Positions 568-30,460 of a stretch of 33,607 bases of DNA are shown here, piece after piece. Both the position numbers and the translations under genes were made by a program. Source of the DNA: Nemertoderma westbladi (Eukaryota; Animalia; Xenacoelomorpha); assembly GCA_032718475.1 (NCBI GenBank), contig JAUCBJ010004887.1, positions 1-33,607 on the forward strand, in the 5' to 3' direction. How positions within the stretch are numbered: position 1 is the stretch's first letter; every line of letters begins with the position of its first letter. The notes beneath the pieces were generated by a model. It saw only the letters and a program-made list of their open reading frames with translations, ran no database searches and was not told the origin of the DNA.

Positions 568-1145
568 GATCTTTTCTTTGAATACGAGTGGAACAATTTC
601 CTACATCACCAAGTTGAACTTATCGTAAAACACGTATTATCGAACGAGATACTGTCTACGCATAATGATCAACATGTCGGTACAACAAACGGACAAGGTC
701 AAACAAACGGACAAGTGGGAAGTAGTGACGCACAACAGCCAATCAGTAGAGAGGGACAGCTGTCTAATATTGCACATCCACTACCTGAAGTACAGCAATC
801 GCAAACTCAACCCAGCCAACCACAGACTCAACCCAGCCAACCACTGACACAACAAAGCCAACCACAGGCACAACAAAGCCAACCACAGACACAACCTAGC
901 CAAACACAGACACAACCACCCCAACCACAAGCACATCCAAGCCAACCACAGACACAATCCAGCCTACCACAGACACAGCTCAGCCAACCACAGACACAGC
1001 TCATCCAACCAAAACCACCCAGCCAACCTTTACTGTCATTGCATCAGCCAAACCTTATACACCACCTTATCATAGACTGTCGTCTCATTCATAGAATCAT
1101 TGCCCCATTTTTAGACAACGATCTCGAATTCGGTTCAGAAAACAG
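568..1145 (+). CDS. PPP6R: Internal exon A of a SAPS-domain protein phosphatase 6 regulatory subunit (PPP6R1/2/3-like)
   Basis: Acceptor ttttaatttatttgcag|GAT at 567/568 and donor AACAG|gtgggt at 1145/1146 (phase 0 in, phase 2 out). DLFFEYEWNNFLHHQVE matches the SAPS motif DLFF.Y.WNNFLH.QVE. LIHHLIIDCRLIHRII resembles the following conserved helix. Confidence 0.9.
799..1030 (+). repeat. Coding 21-bp minisatellite encoding Q/P/T/S heptads (QPSQPQT-like, ~11 copies) inside exon A
   Basis: Repeating (c)cacagacacaacccagccaa-like units; protein QTQPSQP QTQPSQP LTQQSQP QAQQSQP... Confidence 0.85.
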
Positions 1146-1865
1146 GTGGGTAGACTCATGTACCGAATAGCCACTGGTACCTAAATGTATCGGTGGAAAG
1201 ATACAGATACCTATTGTATAGGAGGGTAGACACATATACGTAATGGTAGGCACAGGTACCTACCATATTGTACCTACCTATTGTACAGGAGGGTAGACAC
1301 ATGTACGTAAAGGTAGGCACAGGTACCTACCATATTGTACCTACCTATTGTACAGGAGGGTAGACACATGTACGTAATGGTAGGCACAGGTACCTACCAT
1401 ATTGTACCTACCTGAGGGTAGACACGTGTACGTAATGGTAGCCACAGGTACCTACCATATTGTACCTACCTATTGTACAGGAGGGTAGACACATGTACGT
1501 AATGGTAGGCACAGGTACCTACCATATTGTACCTACCTATTGTACAGGAGGGTAGACACATATACGTAATGGTAGGCACAGGTACCTACCATATTGTACC
1601 TACCTATTGTACAGGAGGGTAGACACATATACGTAATGGTAGGCACAGGTACCTACCATATTGTACCTACCTATTGTACAGGAGGGTAGACACAATATGT
1701 ACGTAATGGTAGGCACAGGTACCTACCATATTGTACCTACGTATTGTACAGGAGGGTAGACACATGTACGTATTGGTAGACAAGCACATGTACGTATTGG
1801 TAGATTCGGCAACCTATTGTATAGGTGGGGTATAGAGACAGGTACCGGGTAGACACAGGGTACCT
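1142..1865 (+). repeat. 67-bp minisatellite (~9 copies plus degenerate ends) starting at the exon A donor
   Basis: Unit acaggagggtagacacatgtacgtaatggtaggcacaggtacctaccatattgtacctacctattgt. gaggg recurs at 1481 and 1548 (67-bp spacing). Internal hairpin ATGGTAGG...CCTACCAT. Confidence 0.9.
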
Positions 1866-1971
1866 GATTTAATTTCGACCTTCTTTATCTGTGAATCTCA
1901 CTGCCCATCAAATACGCAGTTTAAACTTCAACTTCGATTTTCTAATCAATTAATTAAGAAATTGATATTTG

Positions 1972-7095: not shown

Positions 7096-7300
7096 CCTCT
7101 TGAAACTAAGTTGCCGCTATGGCTATATGGGCCATCTAATGACTATGGCTAAACACCTAGCGGAGAGCAGTTCTGTTCAACCAAATGGAGTTACTATTAG
7201 AGATTGTTTGGATGAGTTACCGGTAGACATCAAGGAGAGATGGGATTTATTCTCCATCCAAACCCTTGTATTATGGTCTAACAGAAATTCTACTGATCTT
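7096..7300 (+). CDS. PPP6R: Internal exon B of the PPP6R/SAPS gene
   Basis: Acceptor gtttatgttacag|C in phase 2 (AG+C = Ser with exon A); donor CTT|gtgagt in phase 0. Encodes RYGYMGHLMTMA (SAPS R.GYMGHL motif) and ERWDLF...L...NRN..DL. Confidence 0.9.
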
Positions 7301-8069
7301 GTGAGTTCTATGTGATTTACATTAGTTTATTTGTTGTTGATGTCTAACACCATACAGTCGTTATTGTAGTGACAACATATTGTAATGACTGGAGGAACAC
7401 TTTTAGCTTGTTTCTGTATGCGGCGGAATTATCAAGATTACGATTGCCCTCGGACGGAGTTTTCCATGTCGGAAATGTCCGGATCCAAATATAAACAATG
7501 AGCATATGAAATTAATATTATATATTGTCCGTACGTGTAAACTGTATATTATGGTGTTTCGAAAAAACACTTTTTTCATATTTTCATTGCTCAAGTGAAT
7601 TTCCCCATTGCATTTCACCTCAAAACATTATTAACGAATTTTCTCCAACAAATATTAATGTTTAAGAGGTGGTACATCAGAACCAAAATATTAAAAATGA
7701 CGCCGCGCCTACATTTTTTGCGCTTCTACCTGAAATTTTCAAATTTGAAATTTTCAGTCCTCAAGTAGTTTAATATAATCAATCACAATGGTTGTAATCG
7801 ATTTTTCGCGCCTCCGTAGGCAAACATACAAAAATACACTCCGTCGTGATTCTGATTTAAAAATGCAATAATCACTACACAATTATTCCCTTTCCCACCG
7901 TAATATTTCATTCCGTTAATATCCAGTATTACAACATATTTCCATCCAAGGCATCTTTAATCGCCTTCACCCACATTTCCAACCAATATTGCCGGCTACT
8001 CCCCTACCACTCTAAATAATTTTTATTTAGAAAAGTTACAAAATTCAGAAAAGTTATTTTTAAAACCCG

Positions 8070-9958
8070 TTTCGTTTTTCAAAATCTACTTAGCCTATCA
8101 GCCTCAAAAAGTACCGGTCTAGACCTAATACCTGCCCGTTTTCTTAAGGATGGTGCTGAAGTACTTAAAGTGCCTATTACATTTATTATTAATTACTCTA
8201 TCGTAGATAATGTAGTACCAGACGAACTGAAATTAGTTAAGGTTGTTCCTCTGTATAAAAAGAATAGTAAAGTAGAACCCTGTAATTACAGACCTGTTAG
8301 TATCTTAAGTATTGTATCTAAAATTCTAGAATGTTCTGTTTTTCTACAGCTGGAGGCACATCTTAGGAGGCTAAATCTGATCTATGAACTTCAGTCCAGT
8401 TTTCGTAAATCATATTCTACAGACACCTGCCTTATTAACTTAACTGATACAATTAGATGTAATAACGCAAAGGGTTTATATACTGGTATGGTAATGTTGG
8501 ACCTACAAAAGGCTTTCGATACAGTAGATCACGAAATTCTGCTTGGTAAGTTAGGCCTGATGGGTGTAGGTTCTATAGACTGGTTCAAGTCCTACCTGTC
8601 AGACAGAGGTCAAACTGTAGTCATTAGCAAATCGCAGTCTACTGTACACGAGATTACCTGTGGTGTACCGCAAGGTAGTATATTAGGTCCTCTGCTTTTT
8701 GTATGCTATGTAAATGATATGATAAGTAGTATAGATCCCGATTTTAAACTCATTTTATATGCCGACGACAGTGCTCTTATTTTCTCTCATAAAGATCCTA
8801 TCCATATTTCCCAAAAGTTAAGTGCAGTTCTAGAATCCTGTAATGAGTGGTTGGTTGATAATAAGCTATCCATTCACTACGGTAAGACTGAAAGTATTTT
8901 GTTTGGTTCCAAAAGAAAGTTAAAGAAGGTAACTAAGTTTGAAGTCACTAGTAATGGACATAAGATTGAAAATAAAAAGGAAGTTAAATATTTAGGCGCC
9001 ACATTGGATAACTGCTTATCAGGAGAAAGCACAGTGAAAAATATTTTCTCGAAAGTTAACAGTAGGCTTAGGTTTCTATACAGAAATAAAAATAGTTTAA
9101 ACACCGACTCCCACAAGTTACTTTGCCCTTCTTTAATACAGTGTCACATGGACTATGCATTCTCTTCTTGGTATGAAGGCTTAACCAAACAGCTTAAATG
9201 TAAATTACAAGTAGCTCAGAATAAAGTAGTACGATTTATTAAAGACTACAAACCTAGGCACCACCTAACTCCAGATGACTTTTCTGAATCTGGACTACTT
9301 AACTTAGATAGTAGAGTTAAGCAGCTACGCCTTAACCATGTGCATAAAGTGTATAATGGTAAATGTCCCAATTACCTAAAACAAAAATTCAACAGAGTAC
9401 GCGATACACACTCTTACAGTACCAGAGCTAGTGCTTCAAACTTCTACCTCCCGAATTGTAAATCCTTTGAATCTGATACTTTCTTTTTTAACGGTATTAA
9501 AAATTGGAACGCTCTGCCTAATGAAATTAAAAACCTATATAATCAACATTCTTTTAAATCTGCAGTTAAATCTCACCTCCGTGTGCAATGTAAAAATAGG
9601 TACAATAGTCCTACAGTAAGTTATTAGTTTAATAATTATTTACTATTTATACTGTAATTATGTTTTATATTAAATTGTTCTGTACATTACATCTTTATCG
9701 TTGAGTCGGGCATTGTCACGCTCTCGGTAAAGTTGTACATGTACATAGTGTAATTACGTTTTATATTGGTTTTAGGTTAGCTTAGTGTAATATTGTATTT
9801 GTAACCAAGTAACATAAAGGACCCCCTTGGAAATAAGCTGCAAAGCTTTAGGGGTAATCCTATATGTTATGTTGGACAATACCTTTATACCGGTACATTG
9901 TTTGGTGTATTTGTTATTGTTTTTACATAATGTATAAATAAATCTATCTATCTATCTA
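8070..9958 (+). mobile_element. 5'-truncated non-LTR retrotransposon (LINE), CR1/L2 group
   Basis: RT ORF followed by a ~330-bp 3' UTR with a stem-loop-like segment (ggacccccttgg...aggggtaatcc), AATAAA and an (ATCT)n tail at 9942-9958. No endonuclease domain or ORF1 upstream. The 5' boundary is approximate. Confidence 0.9.
8170..9627 (+). CDS. LINE ORF2 fragment: reverse transcriptase domain and C-terminus
   Basis: Motifs [45 protein letters not shown] and KYLG. The frame extends upstream through [15 protein letters not shown] (from ~8100), so this is a truncated ORF2 without a genuine start codon. Confidence 0.92.
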
Positions 9959-12767
9959 CAAATTACTGCCATCCAATAAAGGAGGTCACTATACAACCTC
10001 CCTCCTTTTTCTCATTGACCCCTCACCCCTCAGTGCGCCAACATTCATCCACCTTATTAATCTCACCCAGTTATTAACAAAGGAATAATTGATAACCAGC
10101 AAACTCTATTGCCATTCAACAGTAGTCGGTTATTGGTCAGTCTAACAACCACATATTAATTATATTTTACATGGGTTGAACGTAAATCACTGCACAAGAA
10201 AGACAAACTATGTTTAGGTGATAATTAGGGGTGAACTTCATATTGACCCCACACCGGGTTTAAATGGGGCCACATTCGGATGGAAAAGTCAGTCCCAAAA
10301 ACCAGCCTCATAGTTGGCCCCCTCGGCAGCTAAGCTAGGCTCTGCTCCAAGGTATTGGACTTCCTTCATCCCAGGCAGGCCTTAACGGGTTCGCGGTTGC
10401 TGGGAAGGTAAGACGATTCCGCCTCAGGACTGAGTTTCGCTGCTAACTAGCCCCAGAGCGCTCGCGCACTCTGTCCACTGGCTACTTAGTTCGTCTCAGG
10501 ACCGACTATTTATTTTTGGGGGCAAAGTATCAGTGTCCCTATAGGCTTCAACTCTGTCAGTTACCAACGGTGGTGCTTGTGCACTCTGTCCGCTGGCTAC
10601 AGTTCATCCCAGGCTCTCCCGCCAGTATCGACGGTATAGCTTTGAGGGCAAAGTAACATCTATCCATTTGCGTCCAATCTGTCCCACCCCTGTTTGGGCT
10701 CAGAGCGCGTGATAGCGTGAAGCTGCTGTATTTTTAGCATAGCGAAACGACTAAAAATACTGTATTTTTCTATACTGTTTTGTTTATATACTGTTTTGGA
10801 CTATATTTTGATTATTTGAGGCTATACTAACGGACCCAAAGCACCCCTCACCCGGTTTATCTTTTTCCTCATCCCAGAGGTTTTTCTATGGTGTTACAGT
10901 CAGTACACTATTTTTATATGCCAGAAGAGAGCAATATACATCTTGGGAAGAACAGAAATCACTGTGTTTTTGCACTATCTTGAAGGGTTGTGGATGTCCG
11001 TAAATAACAAGTCATTGAAGGACCGTGTTCTAGTGGGAAATATTTCTTATCAGCCGGGAACCAAAACAATAAGGGGAAGAATAGCACTTCTTGGAACCTT
11101 TAGAGATTCAAACCCGTTTTAGGAGCTTATCGTGCCAAGAGGCACGAGAAATCCATTACAATGGTGATTGTGAAGTTTTCTTATGAAGTTCTTTTTATTG
11201 AGTTGATCATAGGGGTGATTGAGAGACACTCACTTTTTTCCAAATACTGGAAAATTCTGAAAAATTGTCACATATAAACTTTTCAGATGTTATATTTTAG
11301 GTGTTAGATATATTATATCCAGCCCTCAATTAGTTTATAGTTAATCTTGTTATTGTGAAGTTATTAACATCAAAATTAATTATATCGGTTGGAATATAGG
11401 GGTGGTATAGACACAGTTTATTAGGCCTAATATTGACATAATTGGGATTGGCGAATAGAATCGTAAGTGTAATAATGTAAGTTTATGTTAATTCCTAAGG
11501 TGAAGCGACAAACACATTTGTTCTGTTCAAATTAAGTTGAGTTAGTGAAAATAAATGTTATAATCAAAACAAAACTTATCCTACAACATTTGTCTCATTT
11601 GAATCGCAAACGTCATTTTAGTGGGGGTAGACACCATAAAAACAACACAAGAATTATTAGTTCTCGAGATATTGCACAAAAGGTAAATGGTAGCTCAACT
11701 TACCATTAGCGCATCAATGAGATATTGGAATATTACAAAAAAAAAGGGTGCTTCTAATTATCCCACAGAATTAAATGTGCTCATTCGATCCGCAATGATC
11801 GATTTAGTTGGGGTAGACACCATCGATTTAGTTGGGGTAGACACCATCAATACGACAGAATAATTAGTTCCCGAGATATAGTACAACATGTGAAGGGTTG
11901 ATCGAGAACTAATACATGTTGTGTTGTTTTCATGGTGCCTACCCCCACTAAAATAACGTTTGCGATTCAAATGAGACAAATATGAGGCCTGTACGATCAA
12001 CAGAAGTGAAAAAATGGTGAAGCTCTTCTGTGACGATTGATCGCGAAATCTGCGATGCTGTGAAAATCTGTAGACAGTTTGGATACTGAAAATCTTGAAA
12101 TATTTTTGTGAAATGTTGTAGGATTAGTTTTTGTTTTGATTATAACATTTATTTTCACTAACTCAACTTAATTTGAACAAAAAAATGTGTTTGTCGCTTC
12201 ACCTTAGGAATTAACATAAACTTACATTATTACACTTACGATTCCATTCGCCAATCCCAATTATGTCAATATTAGGCCTAATAAACTGTGTCTATACCAC
12301 CCCTATATTTTAACTGATATAATTAATTTTTGTGTTAATAACTTCACACTAACAAGATTAACTAGACAAACCAGTTGAGGGCTGGATATAATATATCTAA
12401 CACCTAAATTATAATATCTGAAAAGTTTATATATGACAATTTTTCAGAATTTTCCAGTATTTTGAAAAAAGTAAAAATTTCTGTAGTACTACCCCTATGC
12501 ATCAACTCAATCAAAAAAATTTCATAAGAAAATCTTCAAGATTTCAGTTAGAAACGCAAAAAAGTAGGCACCGCTTCATTTTTCAATATTGTGGGTCTGA
12601 TGTACCACCACCTTTACATTATTTAATATTTTTTGAGAAGAATTTGTTTCTATTGTTTTTAGGTGAAATGCAATGGGAAACTTCACTTGAGCAATGAAAA
12701 TATGAAAAAAGTGTTTTTTCGAAACACCCTACTGTAGTACACCCTGTAATTATAACTTATTTTACAG

Positions 12768-12860
12768 GGAGGATCACGTCCTGTCGGTGTCCTAACACCG
12801 TTGTTAGATGATGATGACTTCGGTACAATTAGGTTCCCAACAGAACCAGACCTACAAAAG
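12768..12860 (+). CDS. PPP6R: Internal exon C of the PPP6R/SAPS gene (GGSRPVGVLTPLLDDDDFGTIRFPTEPDLQK)
   Basis: Acceptor cttattttacag|GGA and donor AAG|gtaatt; 93 nt, phase 0-0, open frame. The acidic DDDDF...LQK segment resembles the region after the SAPS domain in PPP6R proteins. Confidence 0.8.
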
Positions 12861-15800
12861 GTAATTCGGTACAATTAGGTTCCCAACAGAACCAGACCTA
12901 CAAAAGGTAATTCGGTACAATTAGGTTCCCAACAGAACCAGACCTACAAAAGGTAATTCGGTACAATTAGGTTCCCAACAGAACCAGACCTACAAAAGGT
13001 AATTCGGTACAATAGGTTCCCAAACAGAACCAGACCTACAAAAGGTAATTCGGTACAATTAGGTTCCCAACAGAACCAGACCTACAAAAGGTAATTCGGT
13101 ACAATTAGGTTCCCAACAGAACCAGACCTACAAAAGGTAATTCGGTACAATTAGGTTACCAACAGAACCAGACGTACAAAAGGTAATTCGGTACAATTAG
13201 GTTCCCAACAGAACCAGACCTACAAAAGGTAATTCGGTACAATTAGGTTCCCAACAGAACCAGACCTACAAAAGGTAATTCGGTACAATTAGGTTCCCAA
13301 CAGAACCAGACCTACAAAAGGTAATTCGGTACAATTAGGTTACCAACAGAACCAGACCTACAAAAGGTAATTCGGTACAATTAGGTTCCCAACAGAACCA
13401 GACCTACAAAAGGTAATTCGGTACAATTAGGTTCCCAACAGAACCAGACCTACAAAAGGTAATTCGGTACAATTAGGTTACCAACAGAACCAGACCTACA
13501 AAAGGTAATTCGGTACAATTAGGTTCCCAACAGAACCAGACCTACAAAAGGTAATTCGGTACAATTAGGTTACCAACAGAACCAGACCTGCAAAAGGTAA
13601 TTCGGTACAATTAGGTTCCCAACAGAACCAGACCTACAAAAGGTAATTCGGTACAATTAGGTTCCCAACAGAACCAGACCTACAAAAGGTAATTCGGTAC
13701 AATTAGGTTCCCAACAGAACCAGACCTACAAAAGGTAATTCGGTACAATTAGGTTCCCAACAGAACCAGACCTACAAAAGGTAATTCGGTACAATTAGGT
13801 TCCCAACAGAACCAGACCTACAAAAGGTAATTCGGTACAATTAGGTTACCAACAGAACCAGACCTACAAAAGGTAATTCGGTACAATTAGGTTCCCAACA
13901 GAACCAGACCTACAAAATGTAATTCGGTACAATTATATAGGTTCCCAACAGAACCAGACCTACAAAAGGTAATTCGGTACAATTAGGTTCCCAACAGAAC
14001 CAGACCTACAAAAGGTAATTCGGTACAATTAGGTTCCCAACAGAACCAGACCTACAAAAGGTAATTCGGTACAATTAGGTTCCCAACAGAACCAGACCTA
14101 CAAAAGGTAATTCGGTACAATTAGGTTCCCAACAGAACCAGACCTACAAAAGGTAATTCGGTACAATTAGGTTCCCAACAGAACCAGACCTACAAAAGGT
14201 AATTCGGTACAATTAGGTTACCAACAGAACCAGACCTACAAAAGGTAATTCGGTACAATTAGGTTCCCAACAGAACCAGACCTACAAAATGTAATTCGGT
14301 ACAATTATATAGGTTCCCAACAGAACCAGACCTACAAAAGGTAATTCGGTACAATTAGGTTCCCAACAGAACCAGACCTACAAAAGGTAATTCGGTACAA
14401 TTAGGTTCCCAACAGAACCAGACCTACAAAAGGTAATTCGGTACAATTAGGTTCCCAACAGAACCAGACCTACAAAAGGTAATTCGGTACAATTAGGTTT
14501 TACCAACAGAACCAGACCTACAAAAGGTAATTCGGTACAATTAGGTTACCAACAGAACCAGACCTACAAAAGGTAATTCGGTACAATTAGGTTCCCAACA
14601 GAACCAGACCTACAAAAGGTAATTCGGTACAATTAGGTTACCAACAGAACCAGACCTACAAAAGGTAATTCGGTACAATTAGGTTCCCAACAGAACCAGA
14701 CCTACAAAATGTAATTCGGTACAATTATATAGGTTCCCAACAGAACCAGACCTACAAAAGGTAATTCGGTACAATTAGGTTACCAACAGAACCAGACATA
14801 CAAAAGGTAATTCGGTACAATTAGGTTCCCAACAGAACCAGACCTACAAAAGGTAATTCGGTACAATTAGGTTACCAACAGAACCAGACCTACAAAAGGT
14901 AATTCGGTACAATTAGGTTCCCAACAGAACCAGACCTACAAAAGGTAATTCGGTACAATTAGGTTCCCAACAGAACCAGACCTACAAAAGGTAATTCGGT
15001 ACAATTAGGTTACCAACAGAACCAGACCTACAAAAGGTAATTCGGTACAATTAGGTTCCCAACATAACCAGACCTACAAAAGTTAATTCGGTACAATTAG
15101 GTTTTACCAACAGAACCAGACCTACAAAAGGTAATTCGGTACAATTAGGTTCCCAACAGAACCAGACCTACAAAAGGTAATTCGGTACAATTAGGTTCCC
15201 AACAGAACCAGACCTACAAAAGGTAATTCGGTACAATTAGGTTACCAACAGAACCAGACCTACAAAAGGTAATTCGGTACAATTAGGTTCCCAACAGAAC
15301 CAGACCTACAAAAGGTAATTCGGTACAATTAGGTTCCCAACAGAACCAGACCTACAAAAGGTAATTCGGTACAATTAGGTTCCCAACAGAACCAGACCTA
15401 CAAAAGGTAATTCGGTACAATTAGGTTACCAACAGAACCAGACCTACAAAAGGTAATTCGGTACAATTAGGTTCCCAACAGAACCAGACCTACAAAATGT
15501 AATTCGGTACAATTAGGTTACCAACAGAACCAGACCTACAAAAGCTGAAAAGGTAATTCGGTACAATTAGGTTCCCAACAGAACCAGACCTACAAAAGGT
15601 AATTCGGTACAATTAGGTTACCAACAGAACCAGACCTACAAAAGGTAATTCGGTACAATTAGGTTCCCAACAGAACCAGACCTACAAAAGGTAATTCGGT
15701 ACAATTAGGTTCCCAACATAACCAGACCTACAAAAGGTAATTCGGTACAATTAGGTTCCCAACAGAACCAGACCTACAAAAGGTAATTCGGTACAATTAG

Positions 15801-18800
15801 GTTCCCAACAGAACCAGACCTACAAAAGGTAATTCGGTACAATTAGGTTCCCAACAGAACCAGACCTACAAAAGGTAATTCGGTACAATTAGGTTCCCAA
15901 CAGAACCAGACCTACAAAATGTAATTCGGTACAATTAGGTTACCAACAGAACCAGACCTACAAAAGCTGAAAAGGTAATTCGGTACAATTAGGTTCCCAA
16001 CAGAACCAGACCTACAAAAGGTAATTCGGTACAATTAGGTTACCAACAGAACCAGACCTACAAAAGGTAATTCGGTACAATTAGGTTCCCAACAGAACCA
16101 GACCTACAAAAGGTAATTCGGTACAATTAGGTTACCAACAGAACCAGACCTACAAAAGGTAATTCGGTACAATTAGGTTCCCAACAGAACCAGACCTACA
16201 AAAGGTAATTCGGTACAATTAGGTTCCCAACAGAACCAGACCTACAAAAGGTAATTCGGTACAATTAGGTTACCAACAGAACCAGACCTACAAAAGGTAA
16301 TTCGGTACAATTAGGTTCCCAACAGAACCAGACCTACAAAATGTAATTCGGTACAATTAGGTTACCAACAGAACCAGACCTACAAAAGCTGAAAAGGTAA
16401 TTCGGTACAATTAGGTTCCCAACAGAACCAGACCTACAAAAGGTAATTCGGTACAATTAGGTTACCAACAGAACCAGACCTACAAAAGGTAATTCGGTAC
16501 AATTAGGTTCCCAACAGAACCAGACCTACAAAAGGTAATTCGGTACAATTAGGTTACCAACAGAACCAGACCTACAAAAGGTAATTCGGTACAATTAGGT
16601 TCCCAACAGAACCAGACCTACAAAAGGTAATTCGGTACAATTAGGTTCCCAACAGAACGAGACCTACAAAAGGTAATTCGGTACAATTAGGTTACCAACA
16701 GAACCAGACCTACAAAAGGTATATCGGTACAATTAGGTTACCCACAGAACCAGACCTACAAAAGGTAATTCGGTACAATTAGGTTCCCAACAGAACCAGA
16801 CCTACAAAAGGTAATTCGTTACAATTAGGTTCCCAACAGAACCAGACGTACAAAAGGTAATTCGGTACAATTAGGTTCCCAACAGAACCAGACCTACAAA
16901 AGGTAATTCGGTACAATTAGGTTACCAACAGAACCAGACCTACAAAAGGTATATCGGTACAATTAGGTTACCAACAGAACCAGACCTACAAAATGTAATT
17001 CGGTACAATTAGGTTACCAACAGAACCAGACCTACAAAAGGTAATTCGGTACAATTAGGTTACCAACAGAACCAGACCTACAAAATGTAATTCGGTACAA
17101 TTAGGTTACCAACAGAACCAGACCTACAAAAGCTGAAAAGGTAATTCGGTACAATTAGGTTCCCAACAGAACCAGACCTACAAAAGGTAATTCGGTACAA
17201 TTAGGTTACCAACAGAACCAGACCTACAAAAGGTAATTCGGTACAATTAGGTTCCCAACAGAACCAGACCTACAAAAGGTAATTCGGTACAATTAGGTTA
17301 CCAACAGAACCAGACCTACAAAAGGTAATTCGGTACAATTAGGTTCCCAACAGAACCAGACCTACAAAAGGTAATTCGGTACAATTAGGTTCCCAACAGA
17401 ACGAGACCTACAAAAGGTAATTCGGTACAATTAGGTTACCAACAGAACCAGACCTACAAAAGGTATATCGGTACAATTAGGTTACCCACAGAACCAGACC
17501 TACAAAAGGTAATTCGGTACAATTAGGTTCCCAACAGAACCAGACCTACAAAAGGTAATTCGTTACAATTAGGTTCCCAACAGAACCAGACGTACAAAAG
17601 GTAATTCGGTACAATTAGGTTCCCAACAGAACCAGACCTACAAAAGGTAATTCGGTACAATTAGGTTACCAACAGAACCAGACCTACAAAAGGTATATCG
17701 GTACAATTAGGTTACCAACAGAACCAGACCTACAAAAGGTAATTCGGTACAATTAGGTTCCCAACAGAACCAGACCTACAAAAGATAATTCAGTACAATT
17801 AGGTTCCCAACAGAACCAGACCTACAAAAGGTAATTCGGTACAATTAGGTTCCCAACAGAACCAGACCTACAAAAGGTAATTCGGTACAATTAGGTTACC
17901 AACAGAACCAGACCTACAAAAGGTAATTCGGTACAATTAGGTTCCCAACAGAACCAGACCTACAAAATGTAATTCGGTACAATTAGGTTACCAACAGAAC
18001 CAGACCTACAAAAGGTAATTCGGTACAATTAGGTTCCCAACAGAACCAGACCTACAAAAGGTAATTCGGTACAATTAGGTTACCAACAGAACCAGACCTA
18101 CAAAAGGTAATTCGGTACAATTAGGTTCCCAACAGAACCAGACCTACAAAAGGTAATTCGGTACAATTAGGTTCCCAACAGAACCAGACCTACAAAAGGT
18201 AATTCGGTACAATTAGGTTACCAACAGAACCAGACCTACAAAAGGTAATTCGGTACAATTAGGTTCCCAACAGAACCAGACCTACAAAAGGTAATTCGGT
18301 ACAATTAGGTTACCAACAGAACCAGACCTACAAAAGGTATATCGGTACAATTAGGTTACCAACAGAACCAGACCTACAAAAGGTAATTCGGTACAATTAG
18401 GTTCCCAACAGAACCAGACCTACAAAAGGTAATTCGGTACAATTAGGTTCCCAACAGAACCAGACCTACAAAAGGTAATTCGGTATAATTAGGTTACCAA
18501 CAGAACCAGACCTACAAAAGGTATATCGGTACAATTAGGTTACCCACAGAACCAGACCTACAAAAGGTAATTCGGTACAATTAGGTTCCCAACAGAACCA
18601 GACCTACAAAAGGTAATTCGGTACAATTAGGTTCCCAACAGAACCAGACCTACAAAAGGTAATTCGGTACAATTAGGTTACCAACAGAACCAGACCTACA
18701 AAAGGTATATCGGTACAATTAGGTTACCCACAGAACCAGACCTACAAAAGGTAATTCGGTACAATTAGGTTCCCAACAGAACCAGACCTACAAAAGGTAA

Positions 18801-21800
18801 TTCGGTACAATTAGGTTACCAACAGAACCAGACCTACAAAAGGTATATCGGTACAATTAGGTTACCCACAGAACCAGACCTACAAAAGGTAATTCGTTAC
18901 AATTAGGTTCCCAACAGAACAAGACCTACAAAAGATAATTCGGTACAATTAGGTTTTACCAACAGAACCAGACCTACAAAAGGTATATCGGTACAATTAG
19001 GTTACCAACAGAACCAGACCTACAAAAGGTAATTCGGTACAATTAGGTTCCCAACAGAACCAGACCTACAAAAGGTAATTCGGTACAATTAGGTTTTACC
19101 AACAGAACCAGACCTACAAAAGGTAATTCGGTACAATTAGGTTACCAACAGAACCAGACCTACAAAAGGTATATCGGTACAATTAGGTTACCCACAGAAC
19201 CAGACCTACAAAAGGTAATTCGGTACAATTAGGTTTTACCAACAGAACCAGACCTACAAAAGGTAATTCGGTACAATTAGGTTACCAACAGAACCAGACC
19301 TACAAAAGGTATATCGGTACAATTAGGTTACCCACAGAACCAGACCTACAAAAGGTAATTCGGTACAATTAGGTTACCAACAGAACCAGACCTACAAAAG
19401 GTAATTCGGTACAATTAGGTTACCAACAGAACCAGACCTACAAAAGGTAATTCGGTACAATTAGGTTCCCAACAGAACCAGACCTACAAAAGGTAATTCG
19501 GTACAATTAGGTTCCCAACATAACCAGACCTACAAAAGGTAATTCGGTACAATTAGGTTCCCAACAGAACCAGACCTACAAAAGGTAATTCGGTACAATT
19601 AGGTTCCCAACAGAACCAGACCTACAAAAGGTAATTCGGTACAATTAGGTTACCAACAGAACCAGACCTACAAAAGGTAATTCGGTACAATTAGGTTCCC
19701 AACAGAACCAGACCTACAAAATGTAATTCGGTACAATTAGGTTACCAACAGAACCAGACCTACAAAAGCTGAAAAGGTAATTCGGTACAATTAGGTTCCC
19801 AACAGAACCAGACCTACAAAAGGTAATTCGGTACAATTAGGTTACCAACAGAACCAGACCTACAAAAGGTAATTCGGTACAATTAGGTTCCCAACAGAAC
19901 CAGACCTACAAAAGGTAATTCGGTACAATTAGGTTACCAACAGAACCAGACCTACAAAAGGTAATTCGGTACAATTAGGTTCCCAACAGAACCAGACCTA
20001 CAAAAGGTAATTCGGTACAATTAGGTTCCCAACAGAACCAGACCTACAAAAGGTAATTCGGTACAATTAGGTTACCAACAGAACCAGACCTACAAAAGGT
20101 ATATCGGTACAATTAGGTTACCCACAGAACCAGACCTACAAAAGGTAATTCGGTACAATTAGGTTCCCAACAGAACCAGACCTACAAAAGGTAATTCGTT
20201 ACAATTAGGTTCCCAACAGAACCAGACCTACAAAAGGTAATTCAGTACAATTAGGTTCCCAACAGAACCAGACCTACAAAAGGTAATTCGGTACAATTAG
20301 GTTCCCAACAGAACCAGACCTACAAAAGGTAATTCGGTACAATTAGGTTACCAACAGAACCAGACCTACAAAAGGTAATTCGGTACAATTAGGTTCCCAA
20401 CAGAACCAGACCTACAAAAGGTAATTCGGTACAATTAGGTTACCAACAGAACCAGACCTACAAAAGGTAATTCGGTACAATTAGGTTCCCAACAGAACCA
20501 GACCTACAAAAGGTAATTCGGTACAATTAGGTTACCAACAGAACCAGACCTACAAAAGGTAATTCGGTACAATTAGGTTCCCAACAGAACCAGACCTACA
20601 AAAGGTAATTCGGTACAATTAGGTTCCCAACAGAACCAGACCTACAAAAGGTAATTCGGTACAATTAGGTTACCAACAGAACCAGACCTACAAAAGGTAA
20701 TTCGGTACAATTAGGTTCCCAACAGAACCAGACCTACAAAAGGTAATTCGGTACAATTAGGTTACCAACAGAACCAGACCTACAAAAGGTATATCGGTAC
20801 AATTAGGTTACCAACAGAACCAGACCTACAAAAGGTAATTCGGTACAATTAGGTTCCCAACAGAACCAGACCTACAAAAGGTAATTCGGTACAATTAGGT
20901 TCCCAACAGAACCAGACCTACAAAAGGTAATTCGGTACAATTAGGTTACCAACAGAACCAGACCTACAAAAGGTATATCGGTACAATTAGGTTACCCACA
21001 GAACCAGACCTACAAAAGGTAATTCGGTACAATTAGGTTCCCAACAGAACCAGACCTACAAAAGGTAATTCGGTACAATTAGGTTCCCAACAGAACCAGA
21101 CCTACAAAAGGTAATTCGGTACAATTAGGTTACCAACAGAACCAGACCTACAAAAGGTATATCGGTACAATTAGGTTACCCACAGAACCAGACCTACAAA
21201 AGGTAATTCGGTACAATTAGGTTCCCAACAGAACCAGACCTACAAAAGGTAATTCGGTACAATTAGGTTACCAACAGAACCAGACCTACAAAAGGTATAT
21301 CGGTACAATTAGGTTACCCACAGAACCAGACCTACAAAAGGTAATTCGGTACAATTAGGTTCCCAACAGAACCAGACCTACAAAAGATAATTCGGTACAA
21401 TTAGGTTTACCAACAGAACCAGACCTACAAAAGGTATATCGGTACAATTAGGTTACCAACAGAACCAGACCTACAAAAGGTAATTCGGTACAATTAGGTT
21501 CCCAACAGAACCAGACCTACAAAAGGTAATTCGGTACAATTAGGTTTTACCAACAGAACCAGACCTACAAAAGGTAATTCGGTACAATTAGGTTACCAAC
21601 AGAACCAGACCTACAAAAGGTATATCGGTACAATTAGGTTACCCACAGAACCAGACCTACAAAAGGTAATTCGGTACAATTAGGTTTTACCAACAGAACC
21701 AGACCTACAAAAGGTAATTCGGTACAATTAGGTTACCAACAGAACCAGACCTACAAAAGGTATATCGGTACAATTAGGTTACCCACAGAACCAGACCTAC

Positions 21801-24800
21801 AAAAGGTAATTCGGTACAATTAGGTTCCCAACAGAACCAGACCTACAAAAGGTAATTCGGTACAATTAGGTTACCAACAGAACCAGACCTACAAAAGGTA
21901 TATCGGTACAATTAGGTTACCCACAGAACCAGACCTACAAAAGGTAATTCGTTACAATTAGGTTCCCAACAGATCCAGACCTACAAAAGGTAATTCGGTA
22001 CAATTAGGTTACCAACAGAACCAGACCTACAAAAGGTATATCGGTACAATTAGGTTACCAACAGAACCAGACCTACAAAAGGTATATCGGTACAATTAGG
22101 TTACCCACAGAACCAGACCTACAAAAGGTAATTCTTTACAATTAGGTTCCCAACAGAACAAGACCTACAAAAGATAATTCGGTACAATTAGGTTTTACCA
22201 ACAGAACCAGACCTACAAAAGGTATATCGGTACAATTAGGTTACCCACAGAACCAGACCTACAAAAGGTAATTCGTTACAATTAGGTTCCCAACAGAACC
22301 AGACCTACAAAAGGTAATTCGGTACAATTAGGTTACCAACAGAACCAGACCTACAAAAAGGTATATCGGTACAATTAGGTTACCAACAGAACCAGACCTA
22401 CAAAAGGTATATCGGTACAATTAGGTTACCAACAGAACCAGACCTACAAAAGATAATTCGGTACAATTAGGTTTTACCAACAGAACCAGACCTACAAAAG
22501 GTAATTCGGTACAATTAGGTTCCCAACAGAACCAGACCTACAAAAGATAATTCGTTACAATTAGGTTCCCAACAGAACCAGACCTACAAAAGATAATTCG
22601 TTACAATTAGGTTCCCAACAGAACCAGACCTACAAAAGATAATTCGGTACAATTAGGTTTTACCAACAGAACCAGACCTACAAAAGGTAATTCGGTACAA
22701 TTAGGTTCCCAACAGAACCAGACCTACAAAAGGTAATTCGGTACAATTAGGTTCCCAACAGAACCAGACGTACAAAAGGTAATTCGGTACAATTAGGTTA
22801 CCAACAGAACCAGACCTACAAAAGGTAATTCGGTACAATTAGGTTACCCACAGAACCAGACCTACAAAAGGTAATTCGGTACAATTAGGTTCCCAACAGA
22901 ACCAGACCTACAAAAGATAATTCGTTACAATTAGGTTCCCAACAGAACCAGACCTACAAAAGATAATTCGTTACAATTAGGTTCCCAACAGAACCAGACC
23001 TACAAAAGATAATTCGGTACAATTAGGTTTTACCAACAGAACCAGACCTACAAAAGATAATTCGGTACAATTAGGTTTTACCAACAGAACCAGACCTACA
23101 AAAGATAATTCGGTACAATTAGGTTTTACCAACAGAACCAGACCTACAAAAGGTATATCGGTACAATTAGGTTTTACCAACAGAACCAGACCTACAAAAG
23201 GTAATTCGGTACAATTAGGTTCCCAACAGAACCAGACCTACAAAAGGTAATTCGGTACAATTAGGTTCCCAACAGAACCAGACCTACAAAAGGTAATTCG
23301 GTACAATTAGGTTACCAACAGAACCAGACCTACAAAAGGTATATCGGTACAATTAGGTTACCCACAGAACCAGACCTACAAAAGGTAATTCGGTACAATT
23401 AGGTTCCCAACAGAACCAGACCTACAAAAGGTAATTCGTTACAATTAGGTTCCCAACAGAACAAGACCTACAAAAGGTAATTCAGTACAATTAGGTTCCC
23501 AACAGAACCAGACCTACAAAAGGTAATTCGGTACAATTAGGTTCCCAACAGAATCAGACCTACAAAAGGTAATTCGGTACAATTAGGTTACCAACAGAAC
23601 CAGACCTACAAAAGGTAATTCGGTACAATTAGGTTCCCAACAGAACCAGACCTACAAAATGTAATTCGGTACAATTAGGTTACCAACAGAACCAGACCTA
23701 CAAAAGGTAATTCGGTACAATTAGGTTCCCAACAGAACCAGACCTACAAAAGGTAATTCGGTACAATTAGGTTACCAACAGAACCAGACCTACAAAAGGT
23801 AATTCGGTACAATTAGGTTCCCAACAGAACCAGACCTACAAAAGGTAATTCGGTACAATTAGGTTCCCAACAGAACCAGACCTACAAAAGGTAATTCGGT
23901 ACAATTAGGTTACCAACAGAACCAGACCTACAAAAGGTAATTCGGTACAATTAGGTTCCCAACAGAACCAGACCTACAAAAGGTAATTCGGTACAATTAG
24001 GTTACCAACAGAACCAGACCTACAAAAGGTATATCGGTACAATTAGGTTACCAACAGAACCAGACCTACAAAAGGTAATTCGGTACAATTAGGTTCCCAA
24101 CAGAACCAGACCTACAAAAGGTAATTCGGTACAATTAGGTTCCCAACAGAACCAGACCTACAAAAGGTAATTCGGTACAATTAGGTTACCAACAGAACCA
24201 GACCTACAAAAGGTATATCGGTACAATTAGGTTACCCACAGAACCAGACCTACAAAAGGTAATTCGTTACAATTAGGTTCCCAACAGAACCAGACCTACA
24301 AAAGGTAATTCGGTACAATTAGGTTACCAACAGAACCAGACCTACAAAAGGTATATCGGTACAATTAGGTTACCAACAGAACCAGACCTACAAAAGGTAT
24401 ATCGGTACAATTAGGTTACCCACAGAACCAGACCTACAAAAGGTAATTCGTTACAATTAGGTTCCCAACAGAACAAGACCTACAAAAGATAATTCGGTAC
24501 AATTAGGTTTTACCAACAGAACCAGACCTACAAAAGGTATATCGGTACAATTAGGTTACCCACAGAACCAGACCTACAAAAGGTAATTCGTTACAATTAG
24601 GTTCCCAACAGAACCAGACCTACAAAAGGTAATTCGGTACAATTAGGTTACCAACAGAACCAGACCTACAAAAGGTATATCGGTACAATTAGGTTACCCA
24701 CAGAACCAGACCTACAAAAGGTAATTCGGTACAATTAGGTTACCCACAGAACCAGACCTACAAAAGGTAATTCGTTACAATTAGGTTCCCAACAGAACCA

Positions 24801-26100
24801 GACCTACAAAAGATAATTCGGTACAATTAGGTTTTACCAACAGAACCAGACCTACAAAAGGTAATTCGGTACAATTAGGTTTTACCAACAGAACCAGACC
24901 TACAAAAGGTATATCGGTACAATTAGGTTACCAACAGAACCAGACCTACAAAAGGTATATCGGTACAATTAGGTTACCCACAGAACCAGACCTACAAAAG
25001 GTAATTCGTTACAATTAGGTTCCCAACAGAACAAGACCTACAAAAGATAATTCGGTACAATTAGGTTTTACCAACAGAACCAGACCTACAAAAGGTATAT
25101 CGGTACAATTAGGTTACCCACAGAACCAGACCTACAAAAGGTAATTCGTTACAATTAGGTTCCCAACAGAACCAGACCTACAAAAGGTAATTCGGTACAA
25201 TTAGGTTACCAACAGAACCAGACCTACAAAAGGTATATCGGTACAATTAGGTTACCCACAGAACCAGACCTACAAAAGGTAATTCGGTACAATTAGGTTA
25301 CCCACAGAACCAGACCTACAAAAGGTAATTCGTTACAATTAGGTTCCCAACAGAACCAGACCTACAAAAGATAATTCGGTACAATTAGGTTTTACCAACA
25401 GAACCAGACCTACAAAAGGTAATTCGGTACAATTAGGTTCCCAACAGAACCAGACCTACAAAAGGTAATTCGGTACAATTAGGTTTTACCAACAGAACCA
25501 GACCTACAAAAGATAATTCGTTACAATTAGGTTCCCAACAGAACCAGACCTACAAAAGATAATTCGGTACAATTAGGTTTTACCAACAGAACCAGACCTA
25601 CAAAAGATAATTCGGTACAATTAGGTTTTACCAACAGAACCAGACCTACAAAAGATAATTCGGTACAATTAGGTTTTACCAACAGAACCAGACCTACAAA
25701 AGGTATATCGGTACAATTAGGTTTTACCAACAGAACCAGACCTACAAAAGGTAATTCGGTACAATTAGGTTCCCAACAGAACCAGACCTACAAAAGGTAA
25801 TTCGGTACAATTAGGTTCCCAACAGAACCAGACCTACAAAAGGTAATTCGGTACAATTAGGTTCCCGACAGAACCAGACGTACAAAAGGTAATTCGGTAC
25901 AATTAGGTTCCCAACAGAACCAGACCTACAAAAGGTAATTCGGTACAATTAGGTTCCCAACAGAACCAGACCTACAAAATGTAATTCGGTACAATTATAT
26001 AGGTTCCCAACAGAACCAGACCTACAAAAGGTAATTCGGTACAATTAGGTTCCCAACAAAACCAGACCTACAAAAGGTAATTCGGTACAATTAGGTTCCC
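12819..26100 (+). repeat. 46-bp satellite (~290 units, ~13.3 kb) built from the last 42 nt of exon C plus the first 4 intron bases
   Basis: Unit ttcggtacaattaggttcccaacagaaccagacctacaaaaggtaa. Copy 1 (12819-12864) overlaps the coding exon and its donor. The array ends 40 nt before the next acceptor. Confidence 0.97.
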
Positions 26101-26140
26101 ACATAACTCCAATTAAATATTGATTTACGTTTTTTTTCAG

Positions 26141-26184
26141 TTTGATATATCAGCGGATGAGTTTATCCAACAGCAGGAGCGCAG
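26141..26184 (+). CDS. PPP6R: Short internal exon D of the PPP6R/SAPS gene (FDISADEFIQQQER)
   Basis: Strong acceptor (cg + T-run + cag|TTT) and consensus donor CAG|gtaagt. Phase 0 in, matching exon C; phase 2 out; no stop. Confidence 0.7.
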
Positions 26185-26233
26185 GTAAGTGAACGTAATA
26201 GGTAAAATAGTAAAATAGGTAACGTAAATGTAC
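26183..26233 (+). repeat. Degenerate 17-bp triplication of the exon D donor (AGGTAA x3)
   Basis: AG|GTAA with the GT at 26185, 26202 and 26219. Confidence 0.45.
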
Positions 26234-26283
26234 CAAGTGTCTGATTCTGCTACAGTCTCAAACACTGTTGCACTACAGACGGA

Positions 26284-26307
26284 CCCCCCCCCCCCCCCCC
26301 CCCCCCC
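26284..26307. repeat. Poly-C homopolymer (24 C)
   Basis: Read directly; flanked by gacgga and aaccccgtcc. Confidence 0.9.
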
Positions 26308-27073
26308 AACCCCGTCCATACATGTACTAATGTATCGGAGTATTGACTAAGGTTGTGAGTTTTCCGGAAATATGTTTTTTCAAGGAAATTTCCGGAAAAG
26401 TATATACTTGACCCGTATGTCAATGCCAACCATATTGACCAAGTTACTCACGGGACTAAAAATATACAAAAATGTAAATCATTTGAGAATGAATGATCGG
26501 GTGGATTTGATAATTAGATCGCCAGATACACAATAATCGGTCCCCTCCTGCTGTGATACACTTAAAGCACAGTTTGTTATAGAAAAGGCTACATCGAATT
26601 AAAAAAAAAATCGTCACTTACGGGACAAATTTCAAATTTTGTTTTTGTGATTACGGGCTCATTTAGGCCATTAAAATTACAATTCAGGTGTCAAACGATT
26701 AATATCCCTCCTGAGTATAATTCCTAGCTCTTCGTAGTAAATTTAAGTTATCAGAAATTCAAAAAAAAATTGCGTGGTCCGTTTTTTTGTCACATACGTG
26801 ACACTCGGTGGGATAAATATTTCTCCATTTGACGCAACACCGCCGCGGCCGCTATGAGGGAGGTGAATACCGCGGCCGCTCCTAAAGCCGCAGGGGTAGG
26901 TGTAAAACGCGGATCCGGATCCGGATTCAGGATCCGGATACGGATCAGGACCCGGATTTGCGAGTGTAAAAGGCGGATCCGGATTTACATACAATCCGTA
27001 ACTGAGTGTAATATGCGGATTCTGAAATACGCAATCCGTATTGCAGTGTAAAACGCGGATTCATATATTTTGT

Positions 27074-27550
27074 GAATCCGGAATGGAGTGTAAAACACGG
27101 ATTTACGTTAATTATCAAGTTTAGTTGGATCCGGAATGGAGTGTAAAACACGGATTTTCGTTAATTACTAAGTTTTATTGGATCCGGAATGGAGTGTAAA
27201 ACACGGATTTACGTTAATTATCAAGTTTTATTGGATCCGGAATGGAGTGTAAAACACGGATTTACGTTAATTACCAAGTTTTATTGGATCCGGAATGGAG
27301 TGTAAAACACGGATTTACGTTAATTACCAAGTTTTATTGGATCCGGAATGGAGTGTAAAACACGGATTTACGTTAATTACCAAGTTTTATTGGATCCGGA
27401 ATGGAGTGTAAAACACGGATTTACGTTAATTATCAAGTTTTATTGGATCCGGAATGGAGTGTAAAACACGGATTTTCGTTAATTACCAAGTTTTATTGGA
27501 TCCGGAATGGAGTGTAAAACACGGATTTACGTTAATTATCAAGTTTTATT
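27074..27550 (+). repeat. 53-bp tandem array (~9 units), left arm of the foldback element
   Basis: Unit ggatccggaatggagtgtaaaacacggatttacgttaattaccaagttttatt; gatccgg recurs at 27181 and 27234. Confidence 0.92.
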
Positions 27551-28850
27551 GAATCCGCGTTTTACACCCCGTCCGGATCCAGAAACACTTTGTAATTAAC
27601 CCGAATCCGCGTTTACACCCCGTCCCGGGTAAAACTTGGTAATAAACTTGAATTCGCGTTTTACACCCCGTCCCGGATCCAATAAAACTTGGTAATAAAC
27701 TTGAATCCGCGTTTTACACCCCGTCCCGGATCCAGAAACACTTTGTAATTAACCCGAATCCGCGTTTTACACCCCTCCCCGAATCCAGTAACACTTTGGT
27801 AATAAACTTGAATCCGCGTTTTACACCCCGTCCCGGATCCAATTAAACTTGGTAATAAACTTGAATTCGCATTTTACACCCCGTCCCGGATCCAGAAACA
27901 CTTTGTAATTAACCCGAATCCGCGTTTTACACCCCTCCCCGGATCCAGTAACACTTTGGTTATAAACTTGAATCCGCGTTTTACACCCCTCCCTGGATCC
28001 AATAAACTTGATAATAAACTTGAGTCCGCGTTTTACACCCCGTCCCGGATCCAGAAACACTTTGTAATTAACTTGAATCCGCGTTTTACACCCCTTCCCG
28101 GATACAGTAACACTTTGGTAATTAACTTGAATCCGCGTTTTACACCCCTTCCCGGATCCAATAAAACTTAGTAATAAACTTGAATACGCGTTTTACACCC
28201 CTTCCCGGATCAAATAAAACTTAGTAATAAACTTGAATCCGCGTTTTACACCCCTCCCCGGATCCAGTAACACTTTGGTAATATACTTGAATCCGCGTTT
28301 TACACCCCTTCCCGGATCCAATAAAACTTAGTAATAAACTTGAATCCGCGTTTTACACCCCTCCCCGGATCCAGTAACACTTTGGTAATATACTTGAATC
28401 CGCGTTTTACACCCCTTCCCGGATCCAATAAAACTTGGTAATTAACTTGAATACGCGTTTTACACCCCTCCCCGGATCCAGTAACACTTTGGTAATATAC
28501 TTGAATCCGCGTTTTACACCCCGTCCCGGATCCAATAAAACTTGGTAATAAACTTGAATCCGCGTTTTACACCCCTTCCCGGATCCAATAAAACTTGGTA
28601 ATTAACTTGAATCCGTGTTTTACACCCCTTCCCGGATCCAATAAAACTTAGTAATAAACTTGAATCCGCGTTTTACACCCCGTCCCGGATCCAATAAAAC
28701 TTGGTAATAAACTTGAATCCGTGTTTTACACCCCTTCCCGGATCCAATAACACTTGGTAAATAAATTGAATCCGTGTTTTACACCCCTTCCCGGATCCAA
28801 TAACATTTTGTAATAAACCTGAATCCGTATTTTACACCCAATCCCGGATT
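27551..28850 (-). repeat. 53-bp tandem array (~24 units), right arm, inverted relative to the left array
   Basis: Unit aatccgcgttttacaccccgtcccggatccaataaaacttggtaataaacttg; its reverse complement aligns to the left-arm unit. Confidence 0.92.
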
Positions 28851-30460
28851 CAGTAGAAATATGAATCCGCGTTTTACACTCCATTCAGGATTTAGCCTAC
28901 AACATGAATCCGCGTTTTACACTCCGTTCCGGATCGAAAAAAAAAGCCAATCCGCGGTTTACACTCGGTTACGGATTCGGTAAATTTAGCAGTGCACGGA
29001 TCCGCAGATTACACCCTAAAAATGTCAATTCAGTCGACTTCCATAGGGACAATGTTAAATGATAGAATCCGGATCCTGATCCGGATCCGCGTTTTACTCT
29101 GACCCAAGCCGCAGGCCATCGCTAACTATATAGGTTAACTTGGGATTCTGGGGGACTTTTCGATGAAGGAACTGACCAATTTTTTTTATTTTCGCACCAG
29201 GGGAGCGGCTCGGAATAGCAACTCTAACATTAGCAAATCTATCCCCTCGACGGACACGGCGGACAAAAAACCGTCATTTTTTCGACAATTTTAAAAATTT
29301 TTTGAAAGGCGTTCTACAGTGGCTCGAAAAAACCCTAGGTTATTGCTTAGCCGACGCCGGGATACGATAGAAGGGATTAATTAGTGAATTCGTTTTTTTT
29401 TTCAAAAAAGATTACCACGCCTTTTTCCTGAAATTGTCCGTCAAAGTTGATAAAACGGACAAAATGGCTTTGCGGGATCCGCTCTAACTCGGCTAATATT
29501 AATCGTACGGGGACGAAAGTAACGCGGTTGGAAAGGGGAAGAGTGGTACTACCTTCGTATCGAATGGGGGTAAGATATTTATTAAAATTTCGGGTGGAAA
29601 AAGGGGCCGTAACTTTGTCCGTTTTTTCCATCTTTTTTACATAATTATTATTTCCAAAATTTTTAATTCGACAACGCTAGTAGGAATCTGCCAATTCTTT
29701 TTCGGAAAGCGTAGAAGACCACAGGGGCTACATTCCTATCGAATGGGGGTACAAAAAATATGTAGGCAAAGGGGTCCAAAAAGGGCCAGAAAATGATAAA
29801 AAGTTTATAACTAACAACTTTTTTATTTTTGACTCTAGAAGGTTAAAGTACATTTTATACGGTTAATATCGATACGGGGAATCCAAATATTCGATTGGTT
29901 TTGCCGCGCAAACGATATTAAAAAAATGAGGACCCAAATTAAAATTTCACGCTTCAAACTCGCTTCGCGGGAACTCGTCTAGCTCGAAAAATACATAAGG
30001 TCTGGGAGACTTATTTAAACAGTCTTATAGAACGTCAAATTATCTATCTTTCAACGGTAGTTACAGCGCCATAGCTATTATATAAATGGAGCTGCAGACG
30101 ATCGTGTGAAATATACTACTTATAAAAAAGGGACGACAAAATTTTTTTTTAATAAATCGCCATTACATTATAATTTAACTTTTTGCGCCAAAAGTTCCTG
30201 TAAAATGTAGCAAATTAACTCCACTATCTTTTTTCTTAACATTTATAATTAAAATAACGAGTTTTAAGGGTCGAAAAATATCGCGTAATTTTGGCCCTTT
30301 TTTCATTTTTTTGGGGCCAAAAATAACCCCTTCTCAAAAGATAGAAAAAAAAATTGCGGCAAAGAATATACCAATTTTATTGAATTTGGAGCACCAGAAC
30401 CGAAGTTAGAGCGAATTTAGTCAAAAATTGAAAATATTTTTTTTTGCAAAAAATTAAGAA

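Follow-up and report, generated by a model that had tools for sequence, protein, structure and literature searches.

The 33,607-nt contig JAUCBJ010004887.1 of Nemertoderma westbladi (Xenacoelomorpha; assembly GCA_032718475.1), the whole of which is referred to here as the window, carries four exons (designated here A to D) of a SAPS/PPP6R-family gene, together with a 46-bp minisatellite that begins inside exon C and occupies nearly the entire intron between exons C and D. The repeat unit consists of the end of exon C and the first bases of the intron, and the splice donor of exon C is repeated throughout the array. The features under discussion, with splice junctions marked by a slash, are as follows.

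568..1145, + strand: exon A of the SAPS/PPP6R-family host gene (Pfam PF04499 match and loose end in contigs of runs X3 and X4)
7096..7300, + strand: exon B of the host gene (near-cut-off PF04499 match, identity to PPP6R proteins, spliced contigs)
12768..12860, + strand: exon C, 93 nt, of which the final 42 nt form the exonic share of repeat unit 1 (spliced joint 7300→12768; alignment to the end of protein P0007)
12819..26101, + strand: 46-bp minisatellite of 40 unit types, with 286 full units and a 21-nt partial one (Tandem Repeats Finder (TRF), our own unit parse, depth of unit contigs in run X1)
12858..12866, + strand: authentic donor AAG/GTAATT, with its GT at 12861; it leads a series of 214 identical sites (spliced contigs, junction count)
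12876..12878, + strand: in-frame TAG in unit 2, reached by transcripts that pass donor 1 (translation)
26102..26140, + strand: non-array end of the intron, 39 nt, with branch-like motifs at 26103-26107 and 26120-26124, a T tract and a CAG acceptor (motifs only)
26141..26184, + strand: exon D, 44 nt, with donor CAG/GTAAGT (X3 and X4 contigs that continue into a further exon)

TRF delimited the array at 12819-26101 with a period of 46, 286.5 copies, 95% matches and a score of 23363, and the unit parse placed its 3' edge within a unit. Of the 286 full units, 99 are identical to unit 1 (12819-12864), which represents the last 42 nt (14 codons) of exon C, FGTIRFPTEPDLQK, followed by GTAA. A first-pass annotation, made from the sequence alone, had described the unit in these terms and as filling the 13,280-nt intron (12861-26140), and both analyses confirmed this; its estimate of about 290 copies captured the scale of the array and is corrected here to 286.5, while near-total filling of the intron likewise stood (array fraction 0.997), with the remainder, put there at some 40 nt, now fixed at 39 nt starting one base later, at 26102. 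Most copies were also claimed to repeat the authentic donor, and 214 of the 286 junctions (the authentic one included) indeed read AAG/GTAATT, the others being AAG/GTATAT (38), AAG/ATAATT (21), AAT/GTAATT (12) and AAG/TTAATT (1), such that GT is retained at 264. Translation bore out the further claim that read-through past donor 1 yields LQKVIRYN-stop.

The array contains no N, its longest exact repeat spans 675 nt and its longest run of identical units is five. Its variants are arranged in blocks; they average 0.39 per unit in the first tenth, climb to ~2 in the last and decrease again in the final seven units, with both edges being most like the coding copy. No second copy of the 46-bp array was found in the window by TRF and alignment, and Rfam returned no match over 12600-26300. 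An exon hidden in, or lost from, the array was considered and rejected, as the parse shows no non-unit insert and the mRNA joins exon C directly to exon D.

Exon A matched Pfam PF04499 (SAPS) over residues 1-34 (E 2.8e-7, 30.3 bits), above the cut-off of 25.6 bits, and exon B fell marginally under that cut-off (E 1.4e-5, 24.7 bits), whereas exon C gave no Pfam match. A profile-free protein search with exon B retrieved five proteins, one of which (P0006) carries the source annotation PP6 regulatory subunit 3. Exon B is 35-40% identical to the PPP6R fragments P0005-P0008, and P0006 and P0007 are SAPS members; the fifth protein, P0004, was dropped as an ankyrin-like repeat protein that matches residues 2-25 only. 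Two word-based protein searches (seven candidates and one candidate, respectively) and a PDB sequence search gave no matches, and a protein atlas placed the queries in unnamed clusters only, with a recognition value under its threshold. On the strength of the SAPS matches of exons A and B, the name of P0006 and the SAPS membership of P0006 and P0007, the host gene is assigned as an animal PP6 regulatory subunit (SAPS/PPP6R family). The four exons (568-1145, 7096-7300, 12768-12860 and 26141-26184) form a single stop-free open frame, and exon D lies behind a phase-0 junction, so that skipping of its 44 nt would shift the frame. The exon that follows D appears as a loose end in X3 and X4 contigs and has no match inside the window, and the intron after exon D must therefore exceed 7.4 kb. 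Within exon A, positions 808-1028 consist of a 21-bp coding repeat (10.7 copies), which encodes a Q/P/S/T-rich insert within the SAPS domain, between profile positions 362 and 393.

Splicing of this locus was examined in runs X3 (study P3) and X4 (study P2), which are catalogued as 'DNA?' and were treated here as RNA, since their contigs join exons at GT..AG and show zero depth on the unique intron bins 7358-7755. In both runs, the 3' end of exon A corresponds to the loose end preceding exon B. The joint 7300→12768 (GT..AG, skipping 7301-12767) was observed at a depth of 196.4 in X3 and 56.6 in X4, with a 93-nt exon C side, and the X4 loose end past 12860 is the start of exon D. Contigs of both runs on 26030-26280 comprise unique exon C sequence, one 42-nt unit part, 26141-26184 and then a further exon, such that the two junctions proposed in the first-pass annotation (7300→12768 and 12860→26141) are both present. 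A product in which one 42-nt unit part is joined to 26141 can be given by donor 1 only, and the main mRNA thus uses the first, most upstream donor in both spliced runs, from two studies; the earlier statement that the spliceosome selects the first of many identical donors therefore holds for the main product. No skipped or extended isoform was found among the X3 and X4 contigs aligned to the locus, a result which sets no bound on minor isoforms, as contigs lose rare forms.

With respect to the origin of the repeat, exons B and C were shown to align through the end of P0007, with LQK opposite LQQ. The 14 repeat-encoded residues obtained a score of 19 against the last 14 residues of P0007 (five identical), which was reached by 19 of 20000 shuffles, and of 15 against P0006 (four identical; 61 of 20000 shuffles), the reverse-strand frames of the repeat scoring 4 or less. 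The local score of exon C against P0007 was reached by six of 2000 shuffles. These comparisons concern P0006 and P0007 only, as P0005 and P0008 stop short of the exon C segment. Given the alignment of the 14 codons to the corresponding PPP6R segment, with its LQQ end, it is likely, with modest support, that the codons predate the array, i.e. that the satellite came from the exon and not the exon from the satellite. P0007 stops at LQQ and P0006 extends four residues further, which suggests an old intron at the exon C/D position. The proposal of an amplification across the exon/intron boundary is upheld by this alignment, but the 'very short ancestral intron' that had accompanied it is not: at its 3' end the array breaks off within a unit, directly before the 39-nt tail, rather than at a clean duplication edge, which leaves a plain history of short-intron inflation unproven; either a seed duplication or a deletion has to be assumed, and the ancestral intron may have been longer and have lost part of its sequence.

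The intron between exons A and B carries a further minisatellite, with a 67-bp unit (1142-1804), which also begins at a splice donor. The segment 1142-1183, encompassing the last four exon bases and the start of the intron, scored 45 against the unit, a value reached by none of 2000 shuffles (best shuffle, 27). Among the later matching sites listed, GA replaces GT at eight of nine, while the site at 1821 keeps GT. These features are indicative of a second, more eroded boundary array in the host gene. A 35-bp satellite (1972-6947; 144 copies, ~5 kb) in the same intron bears no likeness to the exon ends.

The arrangement at exon C is of a known kind, namely a boundary-spanning minisatellite ('mirage' or F7-type variable number tandem repeat (VNTR)), already described in human and amphioxus genes, and the novelty implied by the first-pass annotation was too high. 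As in those systems, unit 1 spans the boundary, the 46-bp units are arranged head to tail, the donor is repeated in the intron and the main mRNA uses the most upstream donor. Human F7 intron 7 is reported to carry a 37-bp VNTR of 5-9 copies, whose first unit lies across the exon/intron boundary; the identical donors further downstream are able to function but stay silent, splicing taking place at the most upstream copy (Borensztajn et al. 2006, PMC1557585). The F7 unit, as described there, includes four exonic bases, compared with 42 (14 codons) in the present array of 286.5 copies, which fills 99.7% of its intron. The same report lists 6-16 (25 pseudo-sites, two used) and CBS intron 13 (15-20 units, two used), as well as LMNB2 and PDGF, for which it gives use of the authentic donor only (PMC1557585). 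In human ABCA7 intron 18, a 25-bp VNTR is reported to range from 12 to ~427 units and up to 10,678 bp (De Roeck et al. 2018, PMC5954066; PMC13747324). Its unit starts with the donor GT and its copy-number scale is comparable to that observed here; as described, however, that unit is without exon sequence and the array of the reference allele is far from filling its intron. Use of the second donor in ABCA7 yields an out-of-frame, decay-sensitive transcript, with retention of one unit having been observed (PMC5954066). Amphioxus 'mirages' in Adh3, globin, troponin C and PGBD5 genes represent invertebrate tandem duplications of exon/intron boundaries with units of 10-160 bp; they are described as unstable in length, as evolving in concert with their edges set apart, as occurring several per locus or genome and as leaving normal splicing undisturbed (PMC3087553, PMC3902484). 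The copy numbers given for globin are 3-6, the present array being ~50 times larger. Internal tandem repeats on exon-intron boundaries have furthermore been reported to alter gene structure in human paralogs, where they create new introns or remain exonic (De Grassi and Ciccarelli 2009, PMC2812944), whereas the array described here lengthens an intron that was already present and leaves the protein unaltered. What sets it apart is that 42 nt of each unit derive from coding sequence and that it fills 99.7% of the intron; its size is large, though within the ABCA7 allele range.

We consider it probable that the array is a boundary minisatellite of which the first donor is used, and which, as a passenger that the gene tolerates, would be removed as a whole. 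A local duplication across the exon C splice junction likely seeded it, the exon-first order being based on homology, and growth and turnover would have proceeded by slippage and unequal exchange; such ordinary minisatellite processes are inferred from the arrangement of variants in blocks and from the edges being closest to the coding copy. Donor 1 likely prevails as the first donor met behind the exon C acceptor, the 5'-most functional donor being chosen, as suggested by the F7 experiments and by exon definition. The usual limit of exon length under exon definition is ~300 nt. Donor 1 lies 93 nt from the acceptor at 12768, donors 2-5 lie at 139-277 nt and all later donors at more than 300 nt, and donors beyond these first five would thus have no acceptor within the usual exon length. 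An RNA structure that frees donor 1 was rejected, since its predicted accessibility by local folding (0.048) is no higher than that of donors 2-4 (0.044-0.048). Since intact donors do not differ in the 42 nt before them or in the bases that follow, and since local folding gives donor 1 no advantage, it is position rather than structure that must decide between them.

The cost of such an array may be low. A premature stop with exons downstream usually subjects a transcript to nonsense-mediated decay. Since the TAG at 12876 is in frame and further exons follow, rare slips to later donors would be expected to be cleared by this route. The sense strand of the array contains neither AATAAA nor ATTAAA, compared with seven and six, respectively, in the preceding 5.5-kb intron, and this lack of early cleavage signals, together with that of acceptors, may account for the tolerance of an intron of such size. 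The other introns of the host gene are also swollen by repeats, with tandem arrays (the 67- and 35-bp repeats) representing 94% of intron A-B. Purging of decoy donors was rejected as well: of the 21 distinct substitutions, five fall inside the 9-nt donor window against 4.1 expected, and decoys are intact at 27 of 28 junctions in the first tenth compared with 13 of 28 in the eighth, those nearest to the exon being the most intact. As substitutions are not enriched in the donor window, there is no sign of selection on the decoys.

Several points weigh against this account. The order-of-arrival mechanism has been carried over from studies in mammals. X3 also contains one 76-nt array contig with a depth of 6.4 (3.3% of that of the mRNA contig), which may derive from nascent RNA, from DNA carry-over or from a transcript spliced at a later donor. 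Given the loss of rare forms noted above, the contig data are compatible with some skipping of exons or minor use of later donors. With regard to origin, the 14-residue test was anchored by the analyst on the LQQ end, exon C reached no significant local score with P0006, 156 of 2000 shuffles doing as well, and when queried on its own by BLASTP it produced no alignment to P0007. In addition, no contig of X1 (a DNA run) or X5 bridges the array and its 3' flank. Finally, longer ABCA7 arrays are reported to alter splicing, with increased skipping of the next exon (PMC5954066), and 'passenger' is for this reason not a safe default.

The last point leads to the alternative that the array acts as a length-dependent dial on splicing, which we regard as unlikely. 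Longer alleles would cause more skipping of exon D or more use of later donors, both frame-breaking, and would lower the output of the PP6 subunit via decay. Besides the ABCA7 precedent, this is favoured by the position of the 44-nt exon D after a phase-0 junction, by an acceptor that is carried by merely 39 unique bases and by the array seemingly varying between individuals: the depth of unit contigs in X1 (1366-4200, against 25-33 for single-copy pieces) would correspond to ~130-170 units, although the depth of contigs is no direct measure of copy number and X2 gives a different picture, and a 48-bp variant of the unit makes up 35% in X1 versus 7% in the window. Conversely, the X3 and X4 contigs display neither a skipped nor an extended form, and retention of one unit in ABCA7 is reported to be unchanged with length (PMC5954066). 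A broader combination is unlikely, namely that copy number would be an inherited dosage dial for the PP6 subunit via exon D skipping or later donors, that concerted evolution would tie 14 codons to a satellite, and that the exon A donor array, its copies having lost the GT, would be the older, later stage of a process in which the birth of minisatellites is biased to exon ends.

A true chromosomal array of much smaller size, or a misplaced one, with the 13 kb being in part an assembly product, is very unlikely. The X1 estimate of ~130-170 units and the missing bridge to the 3' flank would fit such a view, as would the summed array depth in X2, which is only ~36 times single copy compared with ~206 times in X1. 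Repeat depths in X2 are erratic, however, a long interspersed nuclear element (LINE) bin reaching 33,382 times single copy there versus 3,747 times in X1, and X1 and X5 provide no cover of 26102-26128, nor X5 of exon D, a hole that is evidence neither way. The 40 unit types in ordered blocks, the lengths of exact repeats and identical runs given above and the absence of N are unlike a collapsed or looped assembly, and array depth is high in X5 (58 array pieces, summed depth up to 18,627) as well as in X1, where unit contigs reach the thousands. A large array is thereby confirmed, its exact length not being fixed. At 26131-26280, X1 also contains a divergent haplotype contig (depth 11.6; six other letters and five gaps per 150 bases), located mostly in the intron after exon D and indicative of high polymorphism.

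That a pre-existing satellite landed at this position and had its first copy exonised, or that the array serves as a sponge for the U1 small nuclear ribonucleoprotein (snRNP), is most improbable. The region of the genome is satellite-rich, and 213 extra donors agree with the donor consensus at seven of nine positions. Against the former stand the match of the 14 codons to the PPP6R segment ending in LQQ in both P0007 and P0006, and the depth of the array in X1, which is compatible with one locus and leaves no room for thousands of copies elsewhere; against the latter, the few nascent transcripts, with ~200 sites each, would be small compared with the cellular U1 pool, which amounts to ~10^5-10^6 per cell.

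Recursive splicing, in which donor 1 would join an AG/GT junction of the array, rebuild the donor and repeat this until 26141 is reached, can be given hardly any credence: intact junctions do read AG/GT and would regenerate an identical donor, and the mature mRNA would be identical to that of one-step removal, but the array junctions carry AAG at -3..-1 and 6% T at -20..-4, compared with CAG and 53-71% T at all four real acceptors, and the array harbours no T5 run and a single branch-like motif in 13 kb, compared with 34 and 63, respectively, in the preceding intron. Lacking such acceptor features, the array is unlikely to be removed stepwise, an option that the first-pass annotation had raised, and the branch point is inferred from its motifs to lie in 26102-26140.

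Further repeats were identified elsewhere in the window. A high-copy LINE-like reverse-transcriptase fragment is located at ~8000-9950 (RVT_1 E 2.5e-26 for 8419-8937; depth thousands of times single copy). Its positions 8500-8523 have 13 exact bases and a few more in common with the array junction; as three of 200 shuffled units score equally, this likeness is probably due to chance. Nested inverted repeats at 11176-12532 and at 7545-7742/12535-12736 (185 nt, 96%; 105 nt, 94%; 114 nt, 87%) resemble miniature inverted-repeat transposable elements and end 30 bases before exon C. In the intron after exon D, a 53-bp satellite (26900-29100) forms two opposed blocks (27076-27557 and 27549-28849), reminiscent of a fold-back element.

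Returning to the probable reading of a boundary minisatellite removed in one piece from its first donor, the locus provides a natural test case: its 214 donors are flanked by identical sequence on either side, with 42 exonic bases upstream, and are not set apart by predicted structure, such that the choice of the first donor can be explained only by its order and its distance from the acceptor. The locus is relevant to first-come and exon-definition models of how donors are chosen in animals other than mammals. Should array length prove to set the skipping of exon D, a core phosphatase gene would here offer an invertebrate parallel to the disease-associated VNTR of ABCA7.

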